A stretch of 64,000 nucleotides of DNA from Alphaproteobacteria bacterium (GCA_963422645.2 CAXXVO010000005.1:1-64000), one strand, 5' to 3'; positions 7,309 through 28,839 are shown, counted from the stretch's first letter. The notes: generated by a model not told the origin, from the letters alone. Numbers and translations: made by a program.

Positions 7309-7329
7309 GCAGGCGCGAAAGGAAACCCC

Positions 7330-8106: not shown

Positions 8107-8111
8107 TCGCG

Positions 8112-8993: not shown

Positions 8994-9084
8994 AACCCTC
9001 ACGCACCGCCCGCGCACGGGCCATGAAACCCCCGCGAAGGGCCCGTTCATGGCCCATGCACAGGCCGGCTTTTCCAGCCCGGTT

Positions 9085-9165: not shown

Positions 9166-9280
9166 CGCTCTCCGCCGCAACGCCCCCGGCCGCCCAGACC
9201 GTCGCCATCGCCGCCATCGCTCCCGCGGCCAGCGGCAAGCAGGCGATCCCGCGCCGCGCGCCGTTCGACCGTGTCTTCAT
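9166..9280 (-). pseudogene. signal-peptide-bearing gene truncated by the phage terminus
   Basis: ATG overlaps the upstream stop (ATGA). MKTRSNGARRGIACLPLAAGAMAAMATVWAAGGVAAES runs into the TGTAG end. Confidence 0.55.
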
Positions 9281-9732
9281 GGCTTGCCTCCCCTTTCCGT
9301 TGGAACGGCCTGCCGGTGGGTCACCGCGAGCGACGTGCCGTCCCCCGAGAGCGCGCCTTCAGGCGGATGCGGCAGATGCGAGAGCGCTTCGAACAGCGCC
9401 TGCGCGGCATCGGCGAACCCGCCCTCGAAGGCCGCTTCCCCCTCCAGCCGGTAGCGGCGGTCGGTCAGGAACACGACGTCCGTGCCGGCCCGCGCGCCCC
9501 AGCGCCAGAGCGCCTCGCGCAGCGTCTCCCCGGCATGCACCCGCCAGACACTCGTGCCGGAGACCTCCGGGCCGGTAGCGGGGCGGGGCTCGATTTCCCG
9601 GGCTCCCGCTCCCAGACCCTTCTCCGCCGGCTCCGCCGCGGCCTCCATTTCCGCCGGAGGCACGTAGCGGAACCCGGCCGAGGCGGGCGCCGCCCATGCC
9701 GCAAGCAGCGCGATCGCCAGAGCGCCGCGCAT
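9277..9732 (-). CDS. TcpQ-domain (PilL-like) periplasmic protein
   Basis: Signal peptide, then WRVHAGETLREALWRWGARAG..AAFEGGFADAAQALF, a TcpQ pattern. Confidence 0.75.
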   Translation of the reverse strand: MRGALAIALLAAWAAPASAGFRYVPPAEMEAAAEPAEKGLGAGAREIEPRPATGPEVSGTSVWRVHAGETLREALWRWGARAGTDVVFLTDRRYRLEGEAAFEGGFADAAQALFEALSHLPHPPEGALSGDGTSLAVTHRQAVPTERGGKP

Positions 9733-10004
9733 CACCCGAAGTCCGTGAAGCGCCGCAGGCGCGCGGCATGGAGCGCCCGGCGGCGTCCGGCTCCCAGCGC
9801 CCGGAGCGCGCGCAGCGCCGCGCGAAAGCGGTAGCCGCGCGCTTCCGCCGCGCGGCAGGCCAGCATCGCCGCCACGACCAGGACCGTCGTCCACCAGGTC
9901 GGCAGGAACAGCCACGGCACCGCCAGGATCAGCAGCCGGGCGTCGAACACGTAGAAGCGCACCGGGCGCATCGAATCCCGCCAAGCCACCTCCGCCGGGT
10001 CCAA
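9732..10004 (-). CDS. icmT: IcmT/TraK family protein
   Basis: WRDSMRPVRFYVFDAR signature, one or two TM segments, 90 aa. Confidence 0.85.
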   Translation of the reverse strand: MDPAEVAWRDSMRPVRFYVFDARLLILAVPWLFLPTWWTTVLVVAAMLACRAAEARGYRFRAALRALRALGAGRRRALHAARLRRFTDFG

Positions 10005-10019
10005 TTCCTTCCCCCCCTC

Positions 10020-11189
10020 TCATGTGTCGTCTCCCGTCATCGGCACGAGTGTCCGCTCTTTGTTTCCCGCGACGATGCGCCTGAACCCGTCGTCCTCGAT
10101 CAGACCCTCGCGATGGGCGCGCGCCGCCGCCGCCGCGAGGTCGTTGCCGGTGGCGGCCAGCGCCGCGCCGATCCTCGCGGGCCAGCTCGCCTGCGGGCTC
10201 TCCAGCAGCGCCGCCTTCAGGCCCGCATCGAAGGCGAGCCACTCGCGGAGCGCGGTGCGGCCTCCCCCGGGGTTGGGGAGCAGCACCTGCGTCACCACCA
10301 GGGTCATGGCATCGATCAGCGCGGCGCCCCGTTCCGCCCGCTCATGCGCGGGAAACTCCGCCAGCATGCGGCGCACCGCGGCCGCCACCCCGATGGTGTG
10401 CGCGGTCGAGAACACGGCGATGCCGTAGTCGGCGGCGCGCACCACCGCCTCGACGGTCTCGCGGTCGCGCGCCTCGCCCACGATCACCGCCGTCGGACGG
10501 CGCCGCAGGCTGGATCTCAGCCCGTCGGCGAAGCTCGCGAAGTGACGCGGGATCTCGGCCGACGACATCAGCGCGCTGTCGGCGGCGATGCCGTCGAACA
10601 CGTACTCGATGGGCGCCTCGTAGGACTGGATGCGCCCGGCGCCCCGCTCCAGCAAGCGCCGGGTGCCGGCGGCGAGCAGGGTCGACTTGCCCGATCCCGG
10701 CACCCCGGTGACCAGCGTGAGCCCCTTGCAGAGGTCCCAGGCCGCCACGATCCCCTCCTCGATCCCGAGCTCGGAGAAGGCGGGCGGCCTGCCGGGCAGC
10801 ACGCGGAGCGTGATGTTGACGGCGAAGCCGGCCGCGCCCTGCACCGGGGCGAGGTTGCAACGGAAGCGCTGCGAGAGGCCGCGCGCCAGCCGGATCGAGT
10901 GCGAGCAGTCGATGGCTCGCCCGGAGCGCAGGATGCCCTCGCCGGTGGCGTCGTAGAGGCGCTCGCAGAGCCGCCCCATGACCACGCCGTCGAGCGAGGC
11001 CGCGGTGGCCCTCTCCAGCCTGCCGTCGATCTCGACGAAGGCCGGGGAGCCGGTCTGGAAGGCGATGTCGGAGGCGCCCCGGCCCGACGCCCACAGCAGG
11101 AACGCGTCGAGCATCTCCGCCGGGAAGCCGTGCGCGGCCTCGGGCCAGAACGCGGTCCGGGTGCTCTGCGTCACGGACGGCGCCGTCAT
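10020..11189 (-). CDS. dotB: DotB/TraJ PilT-like ATPase
   Basis: GASDIAFQTG, Walker A GVPGSGKST, YEAPIEYVF, LRRRP..IVGEARDRET, STAHT; follows dotC. Confidence 0.88.
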   Translation of the reverse strand: MTAPSVTQSTRTAFWPEAAHGFPAEMLDAFLLWASGRGASDIAFQTGSPAFVEIDGRLERATAASLDGVVMGRLCERLYDATGEGILRSGRAIDCSHSIRLARGLSQRFRCNLAPVQGAAGFAVNITLRVLPGRPPAFSELGIEEGIVAAWDLCKGLTLVTGVPGSGKSTLLAAGTRRLLERGAGRIQSYEAPIEYVFDGIAADSALMSSAEIPRHFASFADGLRSSLRRRPTAVIVGEARDRETVEAVVRAADYGIAVFSTAHTIGVAAAVRRMLAEFPAHERAERGAALIDAMTLVVTQVLLPNPGGGRTALREWLAFDAGLKAALLESPQASWPARIGAALAATGNDLAAAAARAHREGLIEDDGFRRIVAGNKERTLVPMTGDDT

Positions 11190-12043
11190 CGGGCGCCTCC
11201 CGCCGGCGGCGCCCAGCGCCCGGCGTCCAGCTCGAAGCGCGCCGCCCGCGCGATCCGGGCCGAGGCCGCGCCGATCCGCACCAACCTCTCGTGGCCCGAG
11301 ACCCCGGCCCGGTCGATCTCGACGGTGGGCGCGGTGACCCGGCCGGCCCGGTGCAGCCGGTGCCAGAGGACGACGCCGGTGAAGGCGCGGTTCAGGCGGT
11401 CGAGGTCGGCGGCGAAGATGTCGTCGGCGAGCGCCCGGCCCTCCGCCCAACCCTCGGCGAGCAGGCGGCGCCAGCGCGCCTCTTCGTCCCCGTCCCTGGG
11501 GAACAGGACCGAGGCCGGCGGCTCGGCGGCTGCCCACGAGCGCCGCAGCCAGTCGCGCCAGCCGGGCACCGCACTCACCAGCCGTGCGGGCTGCACGATC
11601 CTGAGCACGCGCTCGGCGCTCGCCGCTTCCGAGCCCGCCCCATCTCCGGCACGACTGTCCAGCCGGAAGGCGCGGCGGGTCTCCACCACGACCGGCGGCA
11701 GCGCCGTGAACCCGTCCTCGCGCAGCACCAGGTCGCCGAAGCGGTAGATGGCGCTCAGCCTCGCCTCATGCCGGTCCAGCATCTCCCCGATCTCCCAGGC
11801 GCGGCGCGCAAGCCCCGCGCGCGCGCCGAACCCCAGCGCCGCCAGCCGCACGGCCGACGCGCGCTTCCCGGCGGCGAACGGGGACGCCGGCCCGGCCTCC
11901 GGCGCGAAGGTCTGCACGGACGCGAGGTCGGGCGGCGGCTTCGCGGCCGCCGCCACTGCCGGCAGGGGCGGCGGCAGGACCGCGAGCACGGCCGCAAGCC
12001 ACACCGCCGGAAACACGGCCCGGGAGGCGACGCGGCCCATCAC
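11186..12043 (-). CDS. dotC: DotC/TraI family T4BSS protein
   Basis: ALGFGARAGL, IYRF, LPPVV.E, IVQPARLVSAVPGWRDWL, GWAEG..LADDIF motifs. Confidence 0.82.
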   Translation of the reverse strand: MMGRVASRAVFPAVWLAAVLAVLPPPLPAVAAAAKPPPDLASVQTFAPEAGPASPFAAGKRASAVRLAALGFGARAGLARRAWEIGEMLDRHEARLSAIYRFGDLVLREDGFTALPPVVVETRRAFRLDSRAGDGAGSEAASAERVLRIVQPARLVSAVPGWRDWLRRSWAAAEPPASVLFPRDGDEEARWRRLLAEGWAEGRALADDIFAADLDRLNRAFTGVVLWHRLHRAGRVTAPTVEIDRAGVSGHERLVRIGAASARIARAARFELDAGRWAPPAGGAR

Positions 12044-12555
12044 CCGTCCTCTGCCGCCGACCGGGCAGAGTCGGGCCCTGTCCAGTCGAGCAGGACCGTG
12101 AGGCTCGCCGCATCCACGGTGAGCGTCGCAGCGCCGCCCGCGCGCAGACCGAGGTCCCGAAGCACCGCGATCAGCGGCTCTCCGTCCACCTCAACGTCAA
12201 CGATCAGCGGCCGCGCCGGCGCCTGACCCGCTTCCGCGAAGCGATAGCCCGCACGCCCGGCAAGCTCCGCCGCGAGCGTTTCGATGGGACCGGACCAGTC
12301 CATGGTCACGGGTCTCCGCAACGCAGCGGGAACCGCGTCCAGGCCGGGCATTCGCGATGCCGGGTCCGGCTCAGGCAGCGTGCGGGCGAGGGAGGCCAGC
12401 GCCCGTTCCGCCCGCTCCGCCGCCTCGACGAGGCGCATCTCGGCGGGATCGGGCCCCGCCGACTCCACGCTCACCGCCGGAAGCTCGCGCTCCCACGACA
12501 CGCATCCCGCGAGCGCCGCCGCGCCGAGCAGCGGCACGATGCGCGCCGCCCTCAC
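12040..12555 (-). CDS. dotD: DotD/TraH family lipoprotein
   Basis: Lipobox LAGC; VTMDWSGPIE.L...LA..AGY..LRDLG motif. Confidence 0.82.
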   Translation of the reverse strand: MRAARIVPLLGAAALAGCVSWERELPAVSVESAGPDPAEMRLVEAAERAERALASLARTLPEPDPASRMPGLDAVPAALRRPVTMDWSGPIETLAAELAGRAGYRFAEAGQAPARPLIVDVEVDGEPLIAVLRDLGLRAGGAATLTVDAASLTVLLDWTGPDSARSAAEDG

Positions 12556-13862
12556 CAGCCCGCCCCGTCGGCGTCGTCCACCACAAGGTGGCGATTCGCC
12601 GCATAGGCGCGGACGTCCAGCACGCGCCTGGTCGCCGGCCCGCTCAGCAGCAAGTCGGCGGCTTCCAGGAAGCCGCCCCCGAAGACCGCAGCCGCGCCCA
12701 GGCCGTAGTCGCGCTCCGCGTTCCACACCAGCGTCCAGCCGGCGCGCGCGGCCCAGCTCTCCAGCACGCCCCTGAGCGAGCGGTGCTCTTCCGGATCGAC
12801 GGTCCAGCCGCCGCCGCTGTCGGCCGCGCCGGCGGGACCTTCACCCTCTCGCGTCCCAGCGCCGCCGGTGCCCGCGCCCGGCGCCGGGCGGCGCTGGGCT
12901 GTGTCCCAGTAGCGGTGGAAGACGACGGTGCCGTGCCGTGGCCCAAGGGTCTGTGGCCCAAGGGTCTGTGGCCCGAGGGGCTCCGGCTCGGGAGTCTCTG
13001 GCACGAGTGCCTCCGGCCCGAGGGTCTCCCACGACCAGTCGTAGCCGCTGAGCGAGGCCACCCGGTCAAGCAGCCCGCCCAGAGACCCCTCCCAGACCAG
13101 GCGCAGCGGCCGCGGGTCGTCGAGAATCGCCGCGCCGCCTGCGATCCGCGCCGGGCGCTCCTCGACCCGCATCGCCACGCCCGCGATCCCGGACAGCCGC
13201 CTGACCAGGGCCGGGAACGGCAGGGCCTCGGTCTCCTCGACGGACACGACCCGCCCGGCCAGCGAGGGCGGAAGCCCTGCCGGTACGGGCGCAAGCTCGG
13301 TCGCCCGAAGCGCCGGCACGCCGCCCCCGGCCGATACGGCGGGCAGCGGAGCCGCCGTCACGTCCTCCCCGTCCCTCGCCAGGGCGACCCCGAAATTCAT
13401 GCAGAGGAACACCGTTGCGGCGCCGGCGCACATGCCGGGACCCAAAGGCACCAGCCCCTTGCGGAAGGGGCGGCCGCGCTTGCGCTGCACGCAGAAGCGG
13501 TGGACCAGCGCGAGGGCGGAGCCCAGGAGCATGGTCCAGGCGAGGCCCGGCACGCCAAGCAGGAAGCCCAGCGCACCCAGCATCATCGCGTCGCCCGGAT
13601 AGAGCGGCCAGCGCCGCCCGAGCCAGGCCGCGACGCCGATCGGGACCATTACGGCGGCCACCCCGAGCGAGGCGCCGAGCACGCCGGCCGCAAGGCGCGG
13701 CCACGCCCCCTCGGCGCCGCCCGGACCCGCGAAGCGCCACGCCGCCGCCGCTCCGAGCAGCGCCAGCACCATACGCGGATCGACCAGGGCGCGCCGCGCG
13801 TCGTGAACGGCCAGTCCCGCCATCGCCGCCAGCACCGCGCCCGCCAGAATCGCCTCCGTCAT
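12552..13862 (-). CDS. A24 prepilin peptidase fused to periplasmic STN-like and TcpQ domains
   Basis: N-terminal multi-TM part with HD, YPGD and VPLGP motifs. C-terminal WEGSLGGLLDRVA and SLRGVLESWAARAGWTLVW..YAANRHLVV. Confidence 0.72.
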   Translation of the reverse strand: MTEAILAGAVLAAMAGLAVHDARRALVDPRMVLALLGAAAAWRFAGPGGAEGAWPRLAAGVLGASLGVAAVMVPIGVAAWLGRRWPLYPGDAMMLGALGFLLGVPGLAWTMLLGSALALVHRFCVQRKRGRPFRKGLVPLGPGMCAGAATVFLCMNFGVALARDGEDVTAAPLPAVSAGGGVPALRATELAPVPAGLPPSLAGRVVSVEETEALPFPALVRRLSGIAGVAMRVEERPARIAGGAAILDDPRPLRLVWEGSLGGLLDRVASLSGYDWSWETLGPEALVPETPEPEPLGPQTLGPQTLGPRHGTVVFHRYWDTAQRRPAPGAGTGGAGTREGEGPAGAADSGGGWTVDPEEHRSLRGVLESWAARAGWTLVWNAERDYGLGAAAVFGGGFLEAADLLLSGPATRRVLDVRAYAANRHLVVDDADGAGW

Positions 13863-14251
13863 CGCTCCCCGTCCTTCCCCTGTCCGTGGTCCGCCGCCTC
13901 CGCCGCGCCCGTGCCGAAGGTGGCCGGCAGCACCCGGCACCAGATCTCGACTTCCGGCTCGGCGCAGAGCCTTGCGGACAGCACCGCCGGTCCGGCGCCG
14001 CTGTCCGGCCCGAGGGTCTCGGCGCGCTCGCGGTTCCAGGCCAGCAGCGCGGCCTGGGCGCGGGCGATGCCCTTCAGCACCGCCACCTCCGCCTGCAGCC
14101 GCTCCATCTCCATGAACGCCCGTTCCAGGTCCCAGGCCGCGCTCTCCGGCCCGGGGGTCTCCTGCACGAGTGTTTCCCCAACCCGCTCCTGCGCGACCGC
14201 CGGCACGGCCGTCATCGAGACGAGAAGCATCGCGAGCACCCGCGCGCGCAT
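13859..14251 (-). CDS. hypothetical secreted coiled-coil protein
   Basis: Signal peptide MRARVLAMLLVSMTAVPAVAQ; its stop overlaps the downstream start codon. Confidence 0.55.
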   Translation of the reverse strand: MRARVLAMLLVSMTAVPAVAQERVGETLVQETPGPESAAWDLERAFMEMERLQAEVAVLKGIARAQAALLAWNRERAETLGPDSGAGPAVLSARLCAEPEVEIWCRVLPATFGTGAAEAADHGQGKDGER

Positions 14252-14265
14252 CTCCGGCACGAGTG

Positions 14266-15381
14266 TCACCGGCACCCCTGGCAGCGTCCGACGACGAGAC
14301 GCGAGATGCCGGCGCTGTCGGCGTCGAGCCTGACGCCAAAGCGCATGCGCGCGGCGTTGGCGGTCGATGCGGACACCGTTCCCGCCGTCATCGTCCGCGC
14401 CGTCACCGAGGCGGCGTCGAGGCCGCCCAGACGCGCGCTGCCGGCGGCGACCGCGCCCGCCGCCCCGATCGAGCCCGCTTCGACCAGGCCCGCCGCCTCC
14501 ACGGTTCGCGCTCGCACCACGCCCGCCGCGGTGATCGAATCGCCGGTGACCGCGCCCTGGATGCGCGCGGCCCCGGCCGTCATCCGATCCGCCGCCTCGA
14601 CCGCGCCCGCCACCCGCATCGCGCGTCCCACCACGAGATCGCCCGTCACCGTGAGGTCGCCGCCGGCCTCCACGTCCGTCGCCACCTCCAGCCTCGCCGC
14701 CTCGACGGTGCCCGCGCCCTCGATGGCGTTGCCGCCCATGTCGAGATCGGCCTCCATGCGGTTGGCATCTGCGAAGCCGGGGATCGCGACCCGGTAGAGC
14801 GCGTCGCCGAAGACCCCGCCGTGGTCGAAGCGCCGGAGCGCCGCCAGGGCGCCCTCTTGCGGCGCGCCCGCGAAGGCGGCCCGGAAGGCGCCCAGGTCGG
14901 CGTCCACGGTGGGTCCCGAGAGCCGGGCCTGGCCGGCGAGGCCGATGCGGGGCCCGGTGGCCTCCAGCAGGGCCGCCGCCGGGCGCACCGTGTCGCCGGG
15001 GCGCACGGTCTCGGTCACCAGCAGGTCGAAGGCGTCCGCCCCCGCCGCCAGCATCAGCACCCGGTAGCCGCGCCCGAGCGCGCCAATCTCCGAGAACTCC
15101 CGCGGCAGCGCGCCGGCTGCTTTCAGGCCCGCCACGGTGAGCTCGGCCGGCCCGCCCTGCGCCTGCCCCAACAAAGCGGGGAAGCGGCTGTTCGCGTGCG
15201 CGGATGCAGCCTCCGCGAGCACCGCGAGCTGCACCGCCGCCAGGTGCCCGCGCCGCTCCAGCGCCCGGGTCTCGAAGAAGACCGTGGCACCCAGCACCAG
15301 CATGCCGAGCAGTCCCAGCGCCAGAAGCGCCCCGAAGACACTCAGTCCGCGCCCGAGCCGCAGGCTCCGTTTCCGCCTCAC
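14266..15381 (-). CDS. PilV-like type IVb minor pilin/adhesin (copy 1)
   Basis: Class III-like signal GRG/LSVFG, LKAAGALP, LYRVAIPGFADANRMEADLDMGGNAI PilV pattern, beta-repeat tail ending CQGC. Confidence 0.78.
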   Translation of the reverse strand: MRRKRSLRLGRGLSVFGALLALGLLGMLVLGATVFFETRALERRGHLAAVQLAVLAEAASAHANSRFPALLGQAQGGPAELTVAGLKAAGALPREFSEIGALGRGYRVLMLAAGADAFDLLVTETVRPGDTVRPAAALLEATGPRIGLAGQARLSGPTVDADLGAFRAAFAGAPQEGALAALRRFDHGGVFGDALYRVAIPGFADANRMEADLDMGGNAIEGAGTVEAARLEVATDVEAGGDLTVTGDLVVGRAMRVAGAVEAADRMTAGAARIQGAVTGDSITAAGVVRARTVEAAGLVEAGSIGAAGAVAAGSARLGGLDAASVTARTMTAGTVSASTANAARMRFGVRLDADSAGISRLVVGRCQGCR

Positions 15382-15421
15382 TCCCCGGCCCGGACGCAGG
15401 CTGAGGCCCCGGCCTCGTTCC

Positions 15422-15521
15422 GGGGATTATATCCAATGGTTGACGTGTTCTGCATGTAGTGCATCAAGCGTTTTTGAAACTACTACATGATGTAGTTGGT
15501 CAACCATGAGTTATAATCCCC
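15422..15521. mobile_element. 100-bp MITE with terminal inverted repeats and 8-bp target duplication
   Basis: GGGGATTATAnnnnATGGTTGAC ... GTCAACCATnnnnTATAATCCCC, flanked by CTCGTTCC at 15414-15421 and 15522-15529. Confidence 0.85.
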
Positions 15522-15583
15522 CTCGTTCCCGGTTCGACGACCGCCGGTGGAGCATGCATGTCAGTGTGCCTCGCATGGCGCCC

Positions 15584-16846
15584 TCACTCGCCCTCGCAGC
15601 CGGCACAGCTGCCGACGGTGAGAACCCCGATCGTGGCGTCGGGGCCGTAGACCCCGCCCGCCGCGCCTCGCGCGGCTCCCAGCGCGCCCGAGACACTCAG
15701 CCGCTCCCCGGCCAGGCCGTCCGCCGCCGCGGCGCCGTCCACCGCCACCGACAGCGACGCCGCGTCGAGGACGCCCGCCGTGCGCATGGCGCCGGCCTCC
15801 AGCCTTTCCGTGGCCTTCACCCGGCCTGCCTTCAGCCGGTCCGTCAGCGCGGCTCCCACCACGAGCTCGGCGGCGACGTCCAGGGCAGGAGCCGCGACGT
15901 CGCCGGCCTCGACCGTCGCCGCCTCTGCGTTCCCCGCTTCCGCCTGTCCGCCGATCCCGGCATTGCCGCCGACCGCGATGTCGGTTCCGGTCTCCACGTC
16001 CTCCGCCGCCACGTCGCCGGCGTCCTCGACGTCCCGCCGCGCCGGGTCCGCCGGGTCCGTCGCGCCGGGCGGGGCCATCGCGAGCGTCGTCTCCATGCGG
16101 TTGAGCCAGGGCCGTCCGGGCTGGGCGCGGCGATGCAGCGCGCGCTCCCGGTAGCGCAGACCCAGATCGGCGGTGACCCACAACGCGTCGCCGGCGAGGG
16201 GACGCCCGAGCGCGGCCTCGACCGCCAGCCGGTGCGCTTCCATGAGCGTGCCGCCGCCCGGCGCCAATGCAGCGAGGCCCGCGTCCAGCGCGCCCGCACG
16301 CATCGCCGTCGGCCGCGACGGGGCGCCGGGTTCCAGCACTCCAAAGGCCATCGGCACGCCCCGCGCGGTCTCGTCCGGGATCACGCCGAGCGTCATCGCC
16401 GCATCGCGCCCGGGACGCCCGGGCAGGTCCGGCGGAGCGGCGCCGAGCGCGCGCAGCCGCGCCACGGTGAGCAGGATGCCGAGCTGCGTCTCGAGCGCCG
16501 TCTCGAAGGCGTCGGCGTGCGCCTGGGTCGCCCGGTGCGCCGCCTGCACCCACCCGGCGAACACGCGTCCGGCGGCCCGGTCGAGAGCCACCGCCCTCTC
16601 CACCGCCCGCGCCTCGTAGTGGACGGCGAGCGCCGCGCCCGCCAGCGAGGCCAGCAGCAGAACGCCCAGCAGCGCGCCGGCGCCGCGCCGGTCACTACCG
16701 CGCCGGGAGACCCTCGTGCCGGAGAACGGCCGGAGCCTCATGAGCCACAGCGGGAGGCGCCGGAACAGGGGAACTCCCTGGTAGACGCCACGCCGGCGCT
16801 TCGCCATGCGGGGATTGCGCTCCCGTTTGTCGGTCTTCCTGCTCAT
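15584..16846 (-). CDS. PilV-like type IVb minor pilin/adhesin (copy 2)
   Basis: Hydrophobic N-terminal helix after RRG, LHRRAQPGRPWLNRMETTLAM PilV pattern, C-terminal CAGC; start position uncertain. Confidence 0.72.
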   Translation of the reverse strand: MSRKTDKRERNPRMAKRRRGVYQGVPLFRRLPLWLMRLRPFSGTRVSRRGSDRRGAGALLGVLLLASLAGAALAVHYEARAVERAVALDRAAGRVFAGWVQAAHRATQAHADAFETALETQLGILLTVARLRALGAAPPDLPGRPGRDAAMTLGVIPDETARGVPMAFGVLEPGAPSRPTAMRAGALDAGLAALAPGGGTLMEAHRLAVEAALGRPLAGDALWVTADLGLRYRERALHRRAQPGRPWLNRMETTLAMAPPGATDPADPARRDVEDAGDVAAEDVETGTDIAVGGNAGIGGQAEAGNAEAATVEAGDVAAPALDVAAELVVGAALTDRLKAGRVKATERLEAGAMRTAGVLDAASLSVAVDGAAAADGLAGERLSVSGALGAARGAAGGVYGPDATIGVLTVGSCAGCEGE

Positions 16847-16856
16847 CCCGATGAAC

Positions 16857-17495: not shown

Positions 17496-17515
17496 CGTCT
17501 CTCCTTTCGCGTGGA

Positions 17516-20277: not shown

Positions 20278-21341
20278 GGGGTATCTCCCGGCCGCGCCCG
20301 GTACGGCAGCGGGGTGGCTTCGCCCTTCTCCGGCACGAGTGCATCGCCGGGGCCCGTGACCCGGACCGCGGGCGGGCGCCCGGCGATGGCCGCGATCCTC
20401 ACGCCATCCGGCAGCACATCGCCCTCGCGCACGAACCACACCCCCGATCCGTCGGTGACGCCGGCGCGCAGTGCGCCCGCGGTGCCGACGATCGAGAACC
20501 ACGCGTAGCGTGGAGACACTCGTGCCGGAGCCTGCGGCTCCGTCTCCTTCTCTTTCTCCGCAGTGGAGGCCAGCGCCGCCCTCAGCGGCGACGGCGCGAC
20601 CGACTGCGTCGCGGAGGCGATCCGCCTCGCCGGCGCGGACGAAGGAGGCGCCACGGCGGGCTTCGCCGCCGCTTCCGGCGCCGGGTCCGGCCGAGGCGTG
20701 CGCAGCTCGCGCAGCGCCGCCTCCGCCTCGAACAGGCCGACCAGGATCTCCTGGCGTTCGCGGCAGAGGGTAAGTATCTCGCTCTCGATCCCGAGCGCCG
20801 ACAGCGCGTCCGCCTCGCCGGCCGCGCCCGCCAGCAGGCGCCGCAGCAGCGCGCGGGGGCAGCCCTCCGCGGCGAAGACACTCGTGCCGGAGACACTCGT
20901 GCCGGCGAGGGGCACGCCGCCCGCGGCACGGTCGTGCGGCGAGCCCGGCGCTTTCGGCGTCCCGGCCAGCGCCCGCAGCAGCCGGCTGCCGCCGGCGGGC
21001 GCGTTCGCTTCCGTTTCCTCTTCCCCATCTTCTGGCGCGTCGGCGCCCGTCGGCGTCCCGATCGCGGCGGGGACGACCGCCGTCGCTGGTACGGCGGGAC
21101 CTTCGGCCGCTTTCGCGGTCTCGTCTCCCGCCGCAGTGGGTCCGGCCGGCGCCACGGGGCTTGCCGCCGTCGCGCCCAGGGGTGTCGGCGCCGCTTGCGT
21201 CGTTCTCCCGCCGCCGTCGCTCGAGGCGCCGGGGAACGGCGCCAGGAGTTCCTCTCCCGCCCATGCGCCGTCCGGCCCCGCCGTCAACGCGGCGCAGAGG
21301 ACCAGGGCTGGGACGAGGGCGGTGCGGGCCGCAGCCTTCAT
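20274..21341 (-). CDS. PilP-like pilus biogenesis protein
   Basis: Signal peptide, Ala/Pro-rich linker, C-terminal SIVGTAGALRA..VREGDVLPDGVRIAAI. Confidence 0.6.
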   Translation of the reverse strand: MKAAARTALVPALVLCAALTAGPDGAWAGEELLAPFPGASSDGGGRTTQAAPTPLGATAASPVAPAGPTAAGDETAKAAEGPAVPATAVVPAAIGTPTGADAPEDGEEETEANAPAGGSRLLRALAGTPKAPGSPHDRAAGGVPLAGTSVSGTSVFAAEGCPRALLRRLLAGAAGEADALSALGIESEILTLCRERQEILVGLFEAEAALRELRTPRPDPAPEAAAKPAVAPPSSAPARRIASATQSVAPSPLRAALASTAEKEKETEPQAPARVSPRYAWFSIVGTAGALRAGVTDGSGVWFVREGDVLPDGVRIAAIAGRPPAVRVTGPGDALVPEKGEATPLPYRARPGDTP

Positions 21342-22510
21342 CGGATCCTCGTTCCCACCCGGTCGGCGAGCACCTGCCAGGGATAGCGGGCTTCCAACCC
21401 CGGCACGAGTGTCCCTTCCAGCGTCACCACGAGCTCGCCGCGCGACCAGCGCCAGGTCCCCGGCACCGCCCCCGTGCCGCCGCCCTCCGCCGCGAGCATG
21501 CCGTCGCCCGCCAGGCGCACCACGGTCTCCGTCCGCCCGGGGAAGGGCAGCACCACCGGCGTCCCCTCCGCTGCCAGCCGGTCGGTCATGCGCATCGCCG
21601 CGAACCGCTCGCTCGTCGGAAGGAAGGGGAGGGCGTCGCCGATCCGGTAGCGCGGCCGTATCGGCAGGCGCTCGTAGTGGACCGCGATCTCCGTCCCGCC
21701 CGACGCCGGCACCAGCAGTATCGGCCACCCGGCCGTCCTCGCCGAGCAGCCAGAGCTCGTCGCCCGCCTCGCCCAGCACCAGCACGTGACGGGCGCCGGC
21801 GGTGTCGGTCAGCACGAAGCCGTCGTTCTCCGCGAGGAACCTCGCCAGGTCCGCGCGCGACAGCCCGTCCCGGCCCTGCGCGGCGGCGATCCCGGTGGCG
21901 CCCGGTCCCCGCAGATGCGATCCCGGCGCGTTGCGCACCGGCGCATCCGGGTCCTGCGCCATCATGGCGGCGAAGGCGGTCGAGGTCTGGCGCTCGTTGA
22001 CCGGCAGCGAGGCCGGTACGGCAAGCTCCGGGCAGGCATCCTTCATCGACCGCGGCCAGCTCTCCTGCACCCAGCCGCGGGAGGCGACATGCCACCTCGT
22101 CCCCGACAGCGTCTCGTTGTGAAGCCCGCCGGTCTCCGGGTCGTGGAACATCGGCGTGTGCCCCCGGCGCCGGCCCGGATCCGGCTCCGCGCCCGGCTCG
22201 AGGTAGCTGTAGAGCGCCCGAAAGCCGCGGGACGGCACCACCCGCCACCGCGCCGTGGCTGGCGTATGGGCGCCGCCGAGATGGGCGCAGGCGAGCAGGG
22301 TGCCGTCGGGCGCGTGGTAGTGCGCCCACACCGTGCCCCGGTCGTCGGCGCGCGAGGAGTTCGGCCGCTCCAGGACCCAGACGCGCCCTGCGAGCAGTCG
22401 CTCGAAGAACGCCGCGCCGTGCGAGCTCAGGTTGGGCCCGTCATCCGGAGCCTGCCCCCAGGCCGCGTCCGCTGCGGCGAACATCGCGCCCAGCCCCGCC
22501 GCCGCCATTT
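21338..22510 (-). pseudogene. hypothetical secreted protein, frameshifted near 21715
   Basis: Globular-looking sequence (HGAAFFERLLAGRVWV..) in one frame continues as ORF 21338-21712 in another; start approximate. Confidence 0.5.
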
Positions 22511-23829
22511 CCGCCCAGCCCGCCGATGCCGTCGGCGCTGCAGACGCCCTCGCCAGCCTGGCCGCCGGTGTCCCCGCCCGCCGGGCCGTCGCTGTCCACG
22601 CCGCAGGCATCGCCGCCCGGTCCGGAGGTGCCGCCGCCGTCGGGGCCTCCCCTGTGGTCTCCGTGATCGGGACCGCTCCAGTCCGGCTCCGCCTCCGCGA
22701 CGCAGTCGTCCCTCTCGACCGCCCACGGCGTGCGGATGGTCTGCGTCACCGGAACCTCGTCCCAAGGAAATCGCGTGGAGCGAAACGTCACCGTGCGCCG
22801 GTAGCCGATCGAGCCGGCATACCCCGCCGGGCACGACCCGGATTTCGTCTCGCCGTGCGAGACCTCGGAGATCTCCGGGACGGGCGCCACCGGCAGGGCG
22901 TCGCCGGTCCAGCAGCTCGTCGACACGAACTCTGGCGCGCCCAGGCTCTCGCCCCGCGCCGTCACCGTCCGCAGCCGCCGCCACACCTCGCGCCCCTCCA
23001 TGCGCCGGTTGTGCGGTGCGCCTGCGCCCCAGTGGCAGGCCAGCGTGTAGTGCTCCCACTGGCTGTAATCGTCGCGGCAGAGGTCGATCGACACCTCCCA
23101 CGGCCCCTCCAACGGCGCGCCCGCGGGATCGCCGCGGCCGTCGTGCTCCTGCGTCACCTCGCGGACCAGGGTGCGGCCGTCGCCGTGGCTGCCCTCCGGA
23201 CAGGGCTCCCCGCGCCGTTCGCGCGTCACCCGCCCGACGGTGTTGAGGAAGGGGTCCGGCACAGCGCCCGCGAGCGCCGCGCGCCCGGACGGCAGCGGGC
23301 CGCCGCGCGAGGCCTCGGACAGGCAGGCTGGCAGGGTCGCGGCGGCGCGCCCGGCGCCGCCCCCGGCCCTGCCGTTCTCCAGCCAGTGCAGCACCGGCTG
23401 GTCGCCGCCGCCGTAGGCGTGCGGCGCGGCGTGGACCGCCCGGTGGTCGTCGCCCGTCCCCTTCAGCTCCTCCGGCGCCAGGTAGACCAGCAGGACATCT
23501 TCGCAGTACCTGGCTTCCAGCCCGCGCAGGGTCCACGACGCCCGCCACCCGGTCTCGGCCGGCGGCACCGGACCGGTCCACGCCGTGGCCCCCGCGGACT
23601 CCTCCAGGATGAAGGTCTCGAGCCTGCGCCACGCCGACTCGACCGCCTGTGCGTGCGCCAGCGCCTCGCGCCGGTAGACCCGCTCGTCGGCCGGGACCTG
23701 CGCCAGCGCAGGCCACACCGCAAGCGGTCCCGACGCGAGCAGGACGCCCACGCTCACGCCCCCGAGCAGCCAGGCCCGCAGGCTCCTCCTGCCGCCCGTC
23801 GATGCTCGCGTCCTTTCCTCACGTTCCAT
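22441..23829 (-). CDS. secreted Cys-rich putative adhesin
   Basis: Signal peptide; repeated CP.G..G....R units followed by W..C; acidic Gly-rich tail. Confidence 0.55.
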   Translation of the reverse strand: MEREERTRASTGGRRSLRAWLLGGVSVGVLLASGPLAVWPALAQVPADERVYRREALAHAQAVESAWRRLETFILEESAGATAWTGPVPPAETGWRASWTLRGLEARYCEDVLLVYLAPEELKGTGDDHRAVHAAPHAYGGGDQPVLHWLENGRAGGGAGRAAATLPACLSEASRGGPLPSGRAALAGAVPDPFLNTVGRVTRERRGEPCPEGSHGDGRTLVREVTQEHDGRGDPAGAPLEGPWEVSIDLCRDDYSQWEHYTLACHWGAGAPHNRRMEGREVWRRLRTVTARGESLGAPEFVSTSCWTGDALPVAPVPEISEVSHGETKSGSCPAGYAGSIGYRRTVTFRSTRFPWDEVPVTQTIRTPWAVERDDCVAEAEPDWSGPDHGDHRGGPDGGGTSGPGGDACGVDSDGPAGGDTGGQAGEGVCSADGIGGLGGNGGGGAGRDVRRSGRGLGAGSG

Positions 23830-25245
23830 GGTCCGTCTCCGCTTGATGTCCGCCCGCGGGTCCTTCGCCGGATCCCGGCGCGCGGTCCGATCGCTCTCTC
23901 CGGCCCGAGGGTCCCTTGCCGTTCCCCGGCACGGGTGTCTCCGGCACGAGTGTCTCCGGGGCTCCTCCGGCGCGAGGGTCCTCGACGGAGACGCCCAGCG
24001 CCCGCAGCTGCGAGGCTGCGAGCGTCACCGGCGCCGCCGGCCGGCCGGCCAGGCGCCAGCCGCCGGTCTCGCCGCGCGAGAGCGCCGTGAGCTCCAGCCC
24101 CTCGATTCCGCCGACCAGCCCCACCAGGCGCGGCAGAGGCCCCGGATCGTCGATGCGCACCGACCAGCCGCCGTCGGCGCCGCGCGCATAGCCGATGCGC
24201 GCTCCCGCGGTTCCCAGGGACCGGTCCACCGCCCGGCGCAGCTCGAGCAATGCGGGCGGCGCCACCTCCGTCGTCCGCAGCACCGGCGCCATCGGCGCCA
24301 GCGCCCAGGCGCGCCCGTCCGCGACCATCGCCGCGTGCCACCCGCCCAGGTGCCGCTCCGCGACGCGCCGCTGCACCGCCTCGGCATGGCCCGAGGCCAG
24401 GTGCCAGCGCGCCAGCAGCACCGGACGTCCCGCGAGCTCCGGCCTGACACCGCTCAGCTCGCCGTCGGCGAAGCGCGCGGCGCATTCGATGCGCTCGATC
24501 CGCCACCCCGGCAGAAACGGGGGGTTGTCGATCAATGCCTGCCGGCAGGCGGCGATCAGCGCCGCCCCGTCCACCGAGACCGCGGACGTCGGCTCCGACG
24601 ACGCCACCGGGGCGGGCACGGGCGCGGGCGATTCCAGCCACGAGAGAAGGGCGTCCCGCTGCAGCCACACCGCAACCGCCGCGGCCAGCGCGGCGACGCC
24701 GATCGCGGCGGCCGCCGGCGCCCGCCTTCGCCGCGCGGACGGCTCCGCGCTCCGGAGCGCGATCGCCGCCCCCAGCCTCGAGGCCGTCTCGTCGAGGGCC
24801 GCCGGGTCGATGGGCGCGATCCCGGAGCCCCCCAGATCCTCCAGCAGCCCCGGCGTGGCAAACAGCGCCCAGCCCAGCGTCCGCGCCCGCTCGAAGGCGG
24901 CGACGGCCGCCGCCCGGCCGTCGAACGCCTCGTCGCCGTCGACCAGCGCCATCCAGAAGGCGCCAGCGCCAGCGCCGCCAGACCCGCAGGGTCAAAACTC
25001 TCAGAGTGAAGACCCGCAGGGCCGAAACCCGCAGGGCCGAAACCCGCAGGATCGAGGCCCTCCGGGCTCCCGGTCGCGTCACCGGCACGAGTGTCCGCGG
25101 CGGCAAAGCCCGTGCGCTCGCCATGGTGCACGCACCAGGGCCGCCTGAGCCTGCGCGCCGTCCGCGCGGTGGCCCGCGCCCCGCCCCGCCCGAGCCAGTA
25201 GAGCCCGCAGGCTTAGCGCCGACCGCCTATGGCGATGACGCTCAC
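23819..25245 (-). pseudogene. PilO2-like type IVb pilus protein
   Basis: GTG at 25245 gives VSVIAIGGRR*ACGLYW (TAA at 25213-25215), frameshift near 24960, then a TM segment and LPGWRIERIEC; lies directly after the secretin. Confidence 0.65.
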
Positions 25246-26835
25246 AGCGGCTCTCCCGGCCCGCCGGGGCGTTCCCCTGTACCAGGGCGTTCCCCGGTCT
25301 CGGCGATACCCAGGGGCGCGCCGATCTCCGCCTTCACCAGCAGCACCTGCTCGGTGCGGGCCAGCGCCCCGCGGCGCCCGCCGCCCGGAAACGGCACGTC
25401 CTCGCTGAACGTCCCGGAGCCGTCCGCCTCGGCGCGCCGGGTCGAGAACCCGGTCACCAGCAGGGTCTCGCCGCGCCGGATCCTCTGGGTCACCTGCACC
25501 GCGCGGCTGGCATAGGCCGGAAGCTGGATCGTGGCGCCGCCGCCCGAGACCTCCCGGAACACCGGGCGGTCGCGCAGGGAGGCGAACAGCCGCACCAGAA
25601 CCTCGCCCGGACCGGTGATGCGCGGGATGTAGCTCGCGGCGAAGCCCGACGAGACCGTGCCCGGCACGATCTCGGTCTGGGCGATGCCCTCGCCCGCGGT
25701 GGTCCGGTGCTCCCTGACGTAGGACTCCTTGTAGAGCTCGAAGAACTGCGCCGGCTTGCCGTTGAGCGAGGGGATGTCGGCCGACAGCACCCGCGAGACC
25801 GTGCCCGCCCGCGACAGCGCGTTCACCGTCGCCGCCAGCGTGTCGCCCACCGCCGCCGCCGGCCTCACGATCGCCACCGACTCCGGCGAGACCGCGAGCT
25901 CCGCCGAAGTGCCGAACAGCTCCTTCACCAGGGCCGCGAGGCCGAACCCGTAGTCCCCCTCCCGCTCCATACGCACCGCGTAGACGTGCACCGACAGCGT
26001 CACCGGGCGCAGCACCTCGCGGTTCAGATGGTCGAGGAAGCGCCGTACACGCTCGACATCCCGCGGCGTGCCGCTCACCAGCAGCGAGGCGCTCGACCGC
26101 GCCGCCTTCGTCGCCGCCGTCCGCCCCGTCGTCGGTCGTCGCGGCGGCCCGGTAGCGCTGCGTGCCCGCGAGCGCACTGATGCGGAACACCGCCGTCTCG
26201 CGGCGCACGATCTCGATCGCGCCCTCGCCGCCGAGGTGGCGCCAGGCGTAGCCGCGTCCGCCCGTCCAGGCATCCAGCAGCGCATCCAGAGGCCCGGTCC
26301 ACACGCCACCCTCGGGCGAAAGCCGGTCGATGCCGGCCCCGGCCAGCGAATCCGCGGGGGAGGATCCTCCGTTCGCGGCCGCGGGACCGGTGAAGCGCAC
26401 CGGAATCCCCGTCGCCGCCTCGATCCGCCGCGCCAGCACCGGGTCCGCCCCGGTCCCGGCGAGAGGCAGCGTGACCGCGTCCGCCCGCAGGAGCCGCGCG
26501 GGCAGGCCGTCCTGCGCGGCCCCGTCCCGCCTCTCCAGCCCCAGCCAGGGCCGCCGCTCGATCACGCGGATGGTGGAGAAGCGCGGCCCCTCCGGCGCCT
26601 CCCTCAGCGCCGCGACTTCGCGGACCGTATCTTCGCTCTCTCCGCGCGCCGCCTCCCATGCCGCCGAGCCGCAGCCCGACAGCAGAGCCGCACAGACCAG
26701 CGCCGCGGCGGCGCTCCCGGCACGGGGAAAGCGCCGCCCGGAGCCTGCGGCAGGGACGGTCCGATCACCGCCACGACAGTCTCGGGCACGGATATCTGCG
26801 GCACGGGTGTCTGGGGAACTGCGTCCTGCCGGCAT
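25242..26835 (-). pseudogene. pilN: type IVb pilus secretin lipoprotein (PilN/BfpB-like), frameshift/deletion near 26090
   Basis: Lipobox LSGC and WTGPLDALLD in one frame; VSGTP..V.RV..FL..LN, SLNGKPA and GETLLVTGF in the other. Confidence 0.82.
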
Positions 26836-26879
26836 CGCCTGTGCGTCTCCTTCGCTCGTCGAAGGCGCGCAGGAAACCC

Positions 26880-27015
26880 CCGGAGATTCAGGCTGTCAAC
26901 AGAGAAAATATAACGATATCAACGGGTTAATCATACTCCAGAGGGCTCCAGGAAAGCCCGTAGGGCTCAGTAGGGCTCAGGACCGTGAAAAAATCTTGTG
27001 AATTTTTTTCGCCCC
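26880..27015 (-). promoter_or_regulatory. putative promoter/operator region of the pil-dot operon
   Basis: AT-rich intergenic DNA with three AGGGCTC copies (tandem TAGGGCTCAG x2 at 26961-26980) and an imperfect inverted repeat GTGAAAAAA..TTTTTTTCGC. Confidence 0.45.
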
Positions 27016-27026
27016 GCCCCCGCATC

Positions 27027-27356
27027 TCACTTCCCGGGACCGGAATCGTCCTTCGAACCGTCCCCTTCGCCGGGACGCGAGTCGTCTTCCGGACCCTCCC
27101 CGTCCTCGCGGTCCGGTTCGTCCTCGTCGATCGGGTCGTCCGCGTCCACCGACTCGCCGGTAAACCCGCGCTTGCGCTCCGCCACCCACCTGTCGAGGTC
27201 GCGGCGGTCGTAGATCACCCGGCGTCCGGCCTTGGCGTAACGCGGACCCCTCCCGGTGACGCGCAGCTTCTCCAGCGTCTTCACGCTCAGCCCCACATAG
27301 GCCGCGGCCTGCTTCGTATCCAGATAACGCAGCTCCCCGGCGCGAGTGTCTCCCAT
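27027..27356 (-). CDS. excisionase/RDF-like HTH protein with acidic tail
   Basis: YLDTKQAAAYVGLSVKTLEKLRVTGRGPRYAKAGRRVIY...DLDRW. Confidence 0.85.
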   Translation of the reverse strand: MGDTRAGELRYLDTKQAAAYVGLSVKTLEKLRVTGRGPRYAKAGRRVIYDRRDLDRWVAERKRGFTGESVDADDPIDEDEPDREDGEGPEDDSRPGEGDGSKDDSGPGK

Positions 27357-27494
27357 GGCGCAGATCCTCCCTTGTTCGGGAGGGCATTTGAGCGCCCCGT
27401 GCCGCGGCCGGACAGGGAGGGAGTCGGCGGGCAGCCCCCAGCCTCCCCCCTCCCGCGGCCGCGCACGCCGCGGCCCGGCAGGAACGCCAGCCGC

Positions 27495-28213
27495 CTAGCC
27501 CCGGCCCGCCGCAAGCTCCAGGTAGCCGCCGCGCATGAGCGCCAGCGCCGTCCGCACCCGCCAGCGCACCTGCGCCCGCAGCGCGCTGTCAGGCGACCAT
27601 TTCGCGGCCACCTTCGCCTCGTCGTGGAGCTCGACGGCGATCTCGCGCAGGCTCCCGCCGGCCAGTCTCGCGTCCAGCACCTGCAAGAGCTCCCCGTCCG
27701 GGATTCGCCGTCTGCTTTTTTGGAATCGACCGCCACCGCCGGCCACAGGCCGGCGACCCGGCGCAGGCGCACGGGAAACCGCGGGTCCGCCGGCGACGAC
27801 ACCCACACCCGGACCCCGGCCTCCGGGTCGAACCCAGCCCCGTCGGCCACGCGCAGCTGCACCGCCGCCCGGCCGTGCTCCACCTTCAGCGTCACCGCGC
27901 CGTCCAAGAGGCGCAGCCCCGAAAGCCGCCATCCCGGCTCCGCCGCCAGCGACACCACCGGCGGACACCCCGACGGCACCGCCTCCAGCATCGGCGCCTC
28001 CGCCCAGAAGGGCGAGGCCGGGCCGTCATCCGCCAGCGGGTCCTCCCACGCCAGAAGGCCCCACTTCGACGCCGCCAGGTCGGCCCCGGTCTGCACCCGC
28101 ATCGGGAACGGCGCCGGCTCCATCGCCGCGGGCGGCGCATCCGCCGCCTCCTCCCTGTAGCCGGGGTTGCGCTGCAGGAACTCCCAGGCCCTCTTTCCTC
28201 CGGTATCGCTCAT
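27495..28213 (-). CDS. FseA-like activator (DUF6499 + DUF2285), split across two frames near 27720
   Basis: AWEFLQRNPGY N-terminal motif; LDARLAGGSLREIAVEL..W..LR..ALALMRGGYLEL C-terminal domain in the -1 frame. Confidence 0.75.
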
Positions 28214-28839
28214 GGCTTGCTCCTTTCCTCTCTCCGGTTGGAATTGCGGTCCGGCCCCCGCCGCGCGGCCCTCCGGGCGCGCGGGGAATACGAGCGGCAT
28301 GACCGCCGCCTCCGGCAGGCGCCGCACGGGCGCACTGACGGGTGACGGGGGGAGTGAAGGGGTGTCGTTCCGCGTGCCATCGCATCCCGGTCCCGGGAGC
28401 GGCAGGCAGGCGATATCCGCGCGGCAACGCGATCGGCAGCGGCCGGCACATGCATGCGCGCATGCTTGCGGCGGTGCGGAGCCACGCTGATGCGGTGACG
28501 ATGACCGGAAAGCAGGAAGGACCGCGGCCGGCGCCGCCGGGCGCATCGGCGCGATTGCGCCATGACGGCCGCCGGGAGTGCGATGAGACCGGACCGCGCA
28601 GGCCCGAACGGATCGGCCCGTCCCGGCACGGCTGTCTCCCTGGTCGACCCGGCCCGCGACCCGAAAGGCGGGACCCCGGAGACGCCGGCGAAGACACTGT
28701 TCCGCCGGACGGGGCCGCTACCTCCCGGAGCTGCACGGAATCCCCCGTCCACGCGGCGTTCACGACACGCCCGGAAGAGAGCGCCGGCTGGATACGGACC
28801 GGGCAGGGCACGGCGGTCGGTCTCCCCGCCGCGCGCGCC

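Follow-up and report, generated by a model that had tools for sequence, protein, structure and literature searches.

The window studied here, a stretch of 64,000 nucleotides from an Alphaproteobacteria bacterium (GCA_963422645.2 CAXXVO010000005.1:1-64000), carries what is left of a pilus and transfer island of type IVB (IncI/Dot-Icm-like), and the genes of this island are riddled with a 15-base repeat, CCGGCACGAGTGTCT, which we call motif A and whose gain and loss is our subject. The island is collinear, by blastn, with islands of other genomes of the genus, and its G+C content is about 75% in a genome of 67% G+C; the phage-tail block that precedes it (3000-9200) and the island stretch (9200-28700) both lie at 73-77%. 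At about 9.2 kb the island is cut, and GpJ-like tail genes encoded on the opposite strand take its place in the window. Relatives continue past this point with DotI/IcmL, DotH/IcmK, a TrbI-like gene, a coupling protein and a TrwC relaxase: the island of the window is a truncated remnant. A Pfam scan of 150 open reading frames (ORFs) between 2.3 and 34.6 kb, restricted to filtered ORFs, places the island genes on the minus strand (Table 1), and most copies of motif A consequently read AGACACTCGTGCCGG in the mRNA.

Searched on both strands with at most two mismatches, motif A is found 21 times in the window, 16 times on the plus strand and 5 times on the minus strand, and always between positions 9546 and 28637. 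The expectation, over 100 shuffles that preserve dinucleotides, is 0.26, and the largest shuffled count is 3. The phage-tail, insertion sequence (IS) and core parts of the window hold zero copies at this threshold; a single match with three mismatches, at 35681, lies outside the island stretch. An initial annotation had listed the copies and stated that no full one occurs in the phage, IS or core parts: at up to two mismatches the statement holds, and the list is fully recovered with minor corrections, namely that the copy given at 10041 starts at 10040 and that the form at 14146 has three mismatches.

The whole assembly, 5,906,602 bases in 23 contigs, contains 40 matches, 21 of them within the 19-kb island and 19 elsewhere, so that the motif is not evenly spread, a point on which the initial annotation had made its proposal depend. 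Composition does not explain the excess, since 198 one-kb windows of G+C at least 0.73 taken outside the island, the phage-tail block at 3-9 kb with its 0 copies included, hold 1 match. Arrays reach 2 to 7 units, and the tandems at 20876/20891 and 23926/23941 advance in exact steps of 15 bases. The only tandem outside the island, also exact, is at C5:541262/541277, in another mobile region, at the C terminus of a small gene that has an IS copy on either side; the IS-like element concerned is present in genome G000 in about 100-123 near-identical copies (two of its internal 16-mers occur 123 and 98 times), and those at C5:533444-535300 and C5:541490-543346, for example, flank this region. Positions 1-34000 of the window give no match to known RNA families at gathering score, a search of a plasmid library yielded one weak, uninformative match, and viral contigs one lone copy, which we take as chance, in a contig of 39% G+C.

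How the copies differ between islands was read from an alignment of seven islands of one clade (clade 1, identity 77-88%), to which three islands of a second clade were added as outgroups. The seven hold 141 copies of motif A at 45 alignment sites, and the outgroups 0. Calling a site indel-type when the islands occupied there exceed the median length of the others by 12 bases or more, 24 of the 45 sites are of this type. Ten of these are occupied in a single island (three in G008a, two each in G003a, G011a and the window, one in G001), 6 are confined to one sister pair, and 8 are spread over several lineages; among the 25 sites common to more than one island, copy number differs at 17. Shared copies are conserved at 89.5% and their flanks at 82%, a contrast that the choice of copies biases and on which nothing is built here.

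The gaps at variable sites are exactly 15 or 30 bases long: one unit directly after a start codon is found only in G011 (about W17491, in window numbering), one pair of units only in G001 (about W13147), and another pair only in G008 (about W23685). The TraI-like protein has 5 additional residues (DSRAG) in the window and 10 in G001, none in 19 other homologues, and the surrounding context is conserved. An earlier alignment of eight sequences gave the same picture of presence and absence. Whole units of motif A are gained and lost at many sites in orthologous genes, and, compared with homologues, copies at many of these sites are clean in-frame insertions of 15 bases, in agreement with one of the options that had been raised for the motif, that of a frame-preserving micro-element.

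The peptides encoded by the copies vary with the frame. Frames were called from third-position G+C, which is very high, on both flanks of each of 288 copies; 117 copies with agreeing flanks were scored, those with disagreeing flanks were dropped, and 3 lay too near the end of their locus. The scored copies read TLVP (50), GTSV (31), DTRAG (26), RHEC or RPEG (6) and PARVS (4), never RHSCR: the same 15-mer is translated in five reading frames and in both orientations. One ORF of the window, 20277-22745(-), contains three readings of the word, ALVPE, PARVS and GTSVSGTSV. The copy at 14254-14268 is non-coding, since it spans a stop codon and then the spacer between two genes. In Pfam-annotated ORFs, most copies of the window lie just outside domain envelopes or at termini, with the exception of the one at 11646.

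The five frames, the two strands and the 15-base gains and losses in orthologous genes bear out the suggestion of the initial annotation that propagation acts on the DNA and not on the protein. Five units that were tested have no stop in any of the six frames, even in tandem, which is weak evidence because 43-69% of random units of comparable kind share this property. A structure model of the TraI-like segment puts the insertion in a coil stretch, at a pLDDT of about 30 in a poor model (mean pLDDT 50), and is unusable as evidence.

A second family of units was found in the second clade. In seven islands of this clade the 15-mer is present in 0 of 7, and 6 of the 7 carry, at 6-21 places, a unit of 18 bases, CRGGGGAWCNCCCYGGYN, with forms such as CAGGGGAACTCCCTGGTA or CCGGCACGGGGGAACACC; the G015 island has neither unit. 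This family B is dispersed and tandem, palindromic (GGGGA-AC-TCCCC) and stop-free in six frames, and island lengths differ in steps of 18. By our reading, it has the eight bases CYGGYACR in common with the 15-mer. First-clade islands hold family B at 2-9 places, and the window has four matches (16766, 18954, 25264, 25282), absent from the earlier list, against 0.08 expected.

Table 1. Genes of the transfer island and units of the two repeat families in the window. Genes and domains are from Pfam unless stated; G001 carries the sister island.
Feature	Position	Strand	Reading, context or basis	Other islands
Type IVB (IncI/Dot-Icm-like) pilus/transfer island remnant	9208..28214	-	blastn collinearity, Pfam, G+C	
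TcpQ-domain ORF	9280..10341	-	Pfam	
Motif A, exact	9546..9560	-	mRNA in CCGG... form; SGTSVW, just before TcpQ domain of ORF 9280-10341(-)	1-5 units in relatives
T2SSE ATPase	10023..11765	-	Pfam	
Motif A, 2 mismatches	10040..10054	+	RTLVPM, 10 residues before stop of T2SSE ATPase ORF 10023-11765(-)	length equal in relatives
T4SS_TraI	11189..12190	-	Pfam	
Motif A, 2 mismatches	11646..11660	+	DSRAG, inside T4SS_TraI-domain ORF 11189-12190(-)	
DotD	12043..12840	-	Pfam	
PilN-like TcpQ protein	12555..14387	-	Pfam	
Period-15 array, six units	12940..13029	+	CCGGCCCGAGGGTCT form plus copies at 12998/13013; ..ETLGPEALVPE.. in linker before TcpQ domain of PilN-like ORF 12555-14387(-)	copy number from 0 to 4 or more
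Motif A, C/G variant	14005..14019	+	clean 15-base insertion	window's island only; absent from sister G001 and 8 other islands
Motif A, two adjacent units, 3 and 2 mismatches	14146..14175	+		three units in G001, zero in five other clade-1 islands
Motif A	14254..14268	+	opens, in the mRNA, with the TGA stop codon of PilV-like ORF 14269-15426(-); remainder intergenic	common to G001 only
PilV-like Shufflon_N protein	14269..15426	-	Pfam	
Motif A, 1 mismatch	16708..16722	-	CCGG... form in mRNA; reading frame uncertain	
Family B core CAGGGGAACTCCCTGG, exact	16766..16781	+		
PilS	16860..18644	-	Pfam	
PilQ-like T2SSE ATPase	18571..21423	-	Pfam	
Family B core CAGGGGAACTCCCTGG, exact	18954..18969	+		
Motif A	19935..19949	+	GTLVPG, just before T2SSE domain of PilQ-like ORF 18571-21423(-)	15-base insertion common to sister island G001 only
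Motif A	20330..20344	+	ALVPE, near end of ORF 20277-22745(-)	two units in G001, none in others
Motif A, exact	20514..20528	-	opposite orientation; PARVS in ORF 20277-22745(-)	1-4 units in relatives
Motif A, exact tandem, two units	20876..20905	-	GTSVSGTSV in ORF 20277-22745(-)	one unit in G001
Motif A, 1 mismatch	21400..21414	+	GTLVPG	
Motif A, cluster of four units	23900..23981	+	starts 23900, 23926, 23941, 23967 (mismatches 3, 1, 0, 3), 11-base partial units in between; ..PETLVPETPVPG.. in poorly aligned linker	
Motif A, 1 mismatch	25082..25096	+	clean 15-base insertion	window's island only (earlier eight-sequence alignment; L009, L012, L019 without unit)
Family B tandem, two units 18 bases apart	25264..25297	-		
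Motif A, two weak units 30 bases apart, 3 and 2 mismatches	26768..26812	+		same length in relatives
HTH_17 (excisionase-like) protein	27030..27494	-	Pfam	
Motif A, 1 mismatch	27337..27351	+	M-G-DTRAG-EL, directly after candidate start codon of HTH_17 ORF	
RovC/DUF2285-type DNA-binding domain	27498..28025	-	Pfam	
Motif A, 2 mismatches	28623..28637	+	ETAVPG; frame call weak	

We now turn to the distribution of motif A beyond the window, which was surveyed in 41 genomes at up to one mismatch, a reversed-pattern control giving 0-2 matches per genome. Of the other 20 genomes of the genus, 16 have the motif, in as many as 60 copies per genome, clustered and often in 15-base tandems; among 20 genomes of other genera, 4 have one single one-mismatch match each and 16 have none. 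Its hosts extend beyond the I-type islands to the F-type transfer genes TraL, TraV, TraC, TrbI, TraW and TraN, and to a TrwC relaxase gene, Strawberry-notch helicase genes and the neighbourhood of a coupling protein (T4CP); one DotI gene has seven tandem units. Among 14 contexts from five genomes without the clade-1 form of the island, 10 are conjugation-associated genes, and the remaining 4 are two copies in the inter-domain linker of the same TPP-enzyme orthologue, one giant adhesin-like gene and one unassigned context.

In metagenomes, the exact 18-mer occurs in 43 stretches, 37 of which were scored after removal of six overlapping duplicates. In 23 of these, G+C is at least 0.72, several copies are present in each except one, and the genes that match Pfam are I-type transfer genes, TrwC or TraN; 6 others, of G+C 0.65-0.70, include copies in RsmB-type methyltransferase and hydantoinase genes, which we take to be chromosomal-type, and the last 8 are contigs of 36-57% G+C with single copies that we take as chance. 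The repeats live mainly inside conjugative-element genes of one uncultured Rhodospirillales-like genus. A TraI-like marker finds the island family in 13 of 49 genomes of the order, only in this genus, and splits the islands into a clade of 72-90% identity and one of 57-62%. Two islands of the same genome, G003a and G003b, have 33 and 4 motif places respectively.

The finding is real, and stronger than first noted: it is genus-wide, involves two families of units and several types of element, and includes many insertions peculiar to one lineage or another. The initial annotation had called the motif island-specific, and this has to be given up, since conjugative elements of several unrelated types carry it, as do, now and then, genes of chromosomal type. 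Nor is the idea that it marks the element as self supported, given these element types, the 33 versus 4 places in G003 and a sister clade with another unit. Readings akin to parS, Chi, matS or uptake sequences are also unsupported, because tandems in 15-base phase, an origin by insertion and not by point mutation, and a protein-tolerant placement do not fit them.

Junctions were studied in a first set of 226 copies, 68 of them isolated, and in a later and larger set of 458 copies with 130 isolated. Just upstream of the isolated copies of the first set, T is found in 75% of cases, C in 86% and T or C in 79%, which gives the full pattern TCY-CCGGCACGAGTG-TCY, or RGA-CACTCGTGCCGG-RGA in the sense of the mRNA; empty sites have a single NGA. 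In the second set, the microhomology at junctions of isolated copies averages 1.85 bases, versus 0.95 in displaced-flank controls, and reaches at least 3 bases in 36% of cases versus 10%. The core of motif A is an imperfect palindrome, GGCAC-GA-GTGTC, with a C/G sub-variant of AGACACTCGTGCCGG: positions 6 and 11 change together, with 152 A-T, 50 C-G and 14 mixed pairs among the 226 copies, and the palindrome is kept.

We lean, by a little, toward a reading in which these are families of frame-neutral micro-repeats that spread at the DNA level by microhomology insertion and slippage, and are then filtered by protein tolerance. New copies would arise in the DNA itself. Arrays would change length by slipped-strand mispairing, which fits tandem arrays that differ by whole units, and new sites would be seeded by a nascent strand, or a single strand of unit length, that takes its sequence from a unit already present and is joined back by a microhomology of 2-4 bases, in most cases at (R)GA, to leave the flanked pattern described above. 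Lengths of 15 and 18 bases, and the lack of stops in six frames, would let insertions survive inside genes; selection would keep units in linkers, loops, termini and benign frames (TLVPE, DTRAG, GTSVS) and remove the rest, and later selection of this kind is consistent with the surplus of benign frames and of positions in linkers or at termini. The central palindrome may promote stalling or recognition. No benefit to host or element need be assumed.

Several observations weigh against this reading. The mechanism is inferred from junction patterns. At 21 of the 45 sites there is no length difference, some of these sites being a mix of two-mismatch chance matches and of linkers that have other sequence in other islands, and the frame counts exclude 168 of the 288 copies, whose flanks gave disagreeing frames. 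Two of about twelve well-resolved insertion events, at about W14019 and W23685, need a register shifted by one or two bases. The co-variation of positions 6 and 11 would suit recognition by a dimeric protein or of a hairpin, so that the repeats may be functional sites, a suggestion and no more because the copies are related by descent and their counts are not independent. The predicted hairpins are weak in family A, about -3 kcal/mol as DNA, and reach -5 to -7 kcal/mol in family B, strengths too weak to decide anything.

Two further points concern specificity. In most isolated copies the junction lies near AGA, whereas free template switching would scatter junctions round the unit, and this clustering hints at a specific enzyme or structure. 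Template switching alone also leaves unexplained the strong preference for conjugative elements and the difference between G003a and G003b, which points to a cis-acting or element-specific factor. The clustering and the load gap are the reasons for which we keep as live rivals two models, one of conjugation enzymes and one of binding sites, discussed below.

In the search for a dedicated enzyme that could move the units, RAYT transposases and reverse transcriptases were both rejected as mobilisers: Y1_Tnp/RAYT (PF01797) is found in 0 of 21 genomes of the genus, a control search matching 6 of 14 reference genomes, and RVT_1 has no match in the motif-rich genomes G001 (92% complete), G003 (100%) and G019 (96%), which hold 31, 28 and 43 copies. 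Loads of mobile genes are very high in the genus genomes G004, G011 and G005, where one genome can have as many as 14 matches to TrwC-type relaxases, and RVT_1 has 57 matches in G011 and 36 in G004, in many identical copies that we take to be of group II intron type. TrwC relaxases are present in 21 of 21 genomes, the motif-free ones included. In several genomes of the genus (loci L129-L155), 14 aligned TrwC relaxase genes have some 330 bases ahead of them an invariant CACACCTGTGC, followed by the inverted repeat GCAAGC-N4-GCTTGC, likely the core of the origin of transfer (oriT).

This oriT-like core does not contain the motif, and the hypothesis that the units are pseudo-nic sites of the relaxase was rejected; a motif-like hairpin upstream of one TrwC gene is not conserved. 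A larger parent element with split motif ends was sought in G000, and the half-motif search returned only the unrelated IS of about 100-123 copies. Capture of restriction fragments at CCGG was rejected too, most copies having no CCGG on their far side.

The palindrome with its paired changes at positions 6 and 11, and unit families that differ between island clades, would be at home in a model that we nevertheless rate as rather unlikely, in which the units are docking sites for a DNA-binding protein encoded by the element: a ParB/BisD-like clamp loader, a silencer, or a regulator of the HTH_17 or DUF2285 type. Each island clade would have its own family of sites, whose intragenic spread was selected for regulation, partition or self-recognition. 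Such a model has to contend with copies that arise as whole-unit insertions, with arrays in 15- or 18-base phase, and with positions that track protein linkers and termini and not promoters; motif A also turns up in elements of unrelated types and in a small number of chromosomal-type genes, and related islands of one genome differ about eight-fold in load. Regulator genes do exist at 27030-28025, and intragenic palindromic loading sites are described on ICEclc, where bisS lies inside inrR and ssb (PMC12409273). The arms, however, have 5 bases with a G-T mismatch here and 11 bases in bisS (PMC12409273), and among the filtered ORFs scanned in the window or the G003 element there is no ParB-type Pfam match.

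Doubtful as well, in our estimate, is the possibility that an enzyme of conjugation acting on single-stranded DNA, a TrwC-type HUH relaxase with two catalytic tyrosines or a Toprim primase, writes the units. The enzyme would cut after RGA in an array, carry the 15-base oligonucleotide along and, on the strand being transferred, join it behind a second RGA, and insertions would accumulate in DNA that passes through conjugation. The strong bias to conjugative elements is as this model would have it, but without any strong bias to a single strand, for example 22 versus 17 copies in the G003a island. A target-like GGA on one side of the unit and a unit-like AGA on the other are also in its favour, with the exception of the two insertion events that need another register. 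TrwC is present in the complete G003 island and throughout the genus, and no RAYT or consistent reverse transcriptase offers itself instead; yet motif-free genomes have TrwC too, the same relaxase clade serves motif-rich and motif-poor islands (G003a/G003b, G004), and the oriT-like core of the 14 TrwC genes lacks the motif. One might even conjecture, with little conviction, that the units are the smallest mobile DNA yet seen, unit-length single strands that the relaxase or primase of conjugation moves while the element is single-stranded, so that each transfer could add in-frame insertions of five or six residues to the element's envelope and pilus proteins and thereby diversify its transfer machinery.

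A reverse transcriptase that copies a short RNA template onto nicked DNA, in the manner of telomerase or prime editing, could produce short junction microhomology, unit-length additions, processive-looking arrays and, from distinct templates, distinct unit families, but is very improbable with RVT_1 unmatched in three genomes of 31, 28 and 43 copies and with the enzymes found elsewhere in many identical copies, taken as group II intron type. We give hardly any credence to ordinary protein linkers, such as ETLVPE repeats, maintained by peptide selection, with a DNA word resulting from extreme codon bias and tandem duplication: the commonest reading is (E)TLVP(E/G), arrays do lie in linkers and third-position G+C is very high, but the frame counts contradict it with five frames and both orientations, the copy at 14254 crosses a stop codon into the space between genes, the identical nucleotide word is found in unrelated genes and element types, and the flanking RGA is conserved outside any single codon frame.

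The favoured reading, that of micro-repeats spreading at the DNA level, can be compared with known systems. In the IncI shufflon, the tyrosine recombinase Rci is encoded beside pilV, and its sfx sites are in inverted pairs confined to the 3' end of that gene; motif A is spread over 19 kb in many genes, and the 150 ORFs of 2.3-34.6 kb have no match to the integrase family. Uptake, Chi or KOPS-like words are over-represented evenly over a genome, with strand polarity, unlike a motif with 21 of 40 copies in 19 kb and strands of 16/5 in the window and 22 versus 17 in the G003a island. Miniature inverted-repeat transposable elements have the terminal inverted repeats of a parent IS, a fixed target-site duplication and a length above about 50 bp; the present unit has 15 bases, a variable junction register, and no larger element with split ends in G000. 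As a coding minisatellite, or variable-number tandem repeat, motif A does vary in copy number in tandem (2-7 units, 17 of 25 shared sites), but it is not confined to one locus, being found at 45 island sites and in unrelated elements.

Closer likenesses exist. The small dispersed repeats (SDR) of Nostoc, in cyanobacteria, are reportedly 21-27 nucleotides long, mostly outside coding constraint, with a shared stem and compensatory changes. What reportedly brings them near the present units is the dispersal of very short repeats that look recently mobile, some of them nested or in tandem, together with compensatory changes in a small stem; here, positions 6 and 11 do change together, but in copies related by descent and with weak predicted stems. 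The units described here differ in being shorter and intragenic, with lengths divisible by three and a tie to mobile elements. PARCELs are coding palindromes of 25 residues (75 bases) linked to mobile elements, protein-level domains in dedicated repeat proteins: they too form tandem repeats with dyad symmetry inside genes, go with mobile elements and have spread through their genomes, whereas our units of 5-6 residues are dispersed over conserved functional genes and keep to no single frame.

Rickettsia palindromic elements (RPE), of about 150 bp, lie in frame in ORFs and encode a conserved peptide (PMC10969869). Like them, the present repeats are palindromic, are inserted in frame into unrelated genes, here as clean 15- or 30-base insertions, add a peptide that is tolerated, and form several families in one genus; unlike them, they have units of 15 or 18 bases, five frames in place of one conserved peptide, phased arrays and a home in conjugative elements. 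Repetitive extragenic palindromes (REPs), of 20-40 bp and often with a GTAG or CGTC tag (PMC3733652), are, with REPINs, short palindromic repeats amplified within a lineage (PMC3116915, PMC3733652). Whereas REPs are extragenic and found all over a genome, the units described here are mostly intragenic, of 15 or 18 bases and restricted to mobile genetic elements, in a genus where 21 of 21 genomes lack RAYT; by inspection, neither strand of the unit has a GTAG or CGTC tag. ICEclc has two functional copies of bisS, with 11-base arms, bound by the ParB-like clamp BisD (PMC12409273). Those are also palindromic sites carried by an integrative conjugative element inside its genes, without tandem arrays or unit indels, as opposed to dozens of copies of insertion origin with imperfect 5-base arms here, 21 of them in the window, in tandem arrays and with one G-T pair in the arms.

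Intragenic palindromic repeats are a known kind; what is distinctive here is their size, a unit length in triplets, phased arrays and the tie to conjugative DNA. A literature search brought up nothing that describes in-frame repeats of 15 or 18 bases within genes of conjugation, which does not prove that none exists, and the 15-mer or its complement is printed in none of the papers searched, one unrelated paper having a 12-mer. If the favoured reading is true, these are among the smallest self-spreading DNA repeats known, and the size limit for self-propagating DNA is lowered: repeats far shorter than transposons, without inverted ends and with no dedicated transposase found, could spread through genes on the sole requirement of a unit length multiple of three and no stops in any frame. 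They would give conjugation and pilus proteins a simple route to gain and lose short linker segments, and could serve, in a genus that is uncultured and apparently host-associated, as a natural marker of exchanges among mobile elements.

Short-read assemblies seem to break at the units, which can also mislead gene callers. Contigs of the public runs X1-X3 tend to end near arrays, at about 12577/13472, 19287/19796 and 21308. Four public runs were compared, as contigs and not as reads: clear unit polymorphism was not seen in them, and one back-joint, 20905>20877, occurs in a run of a relative. The public runs that hold the motif do so in contigs, and no RNA run is listed among them. Other tandem arrays of in-frame length, unrelated to motif A, lie at 24982-25050 and 27030-27146, with periods of 15 (ACCCGCAGGGCCGAA, 4.6 copies), 36 (2.1 copies) and 18 (2.5 copies). 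A Trans_reg_dom match at 27290-28717(-) overlaps the RovC/DUF2285 match at 27498-28025(-) in another frame of the minus strand, an arrangement that may resemble that of the frameshift-dependent activator FseA of a Mesorhizobium integrative conjugative element.

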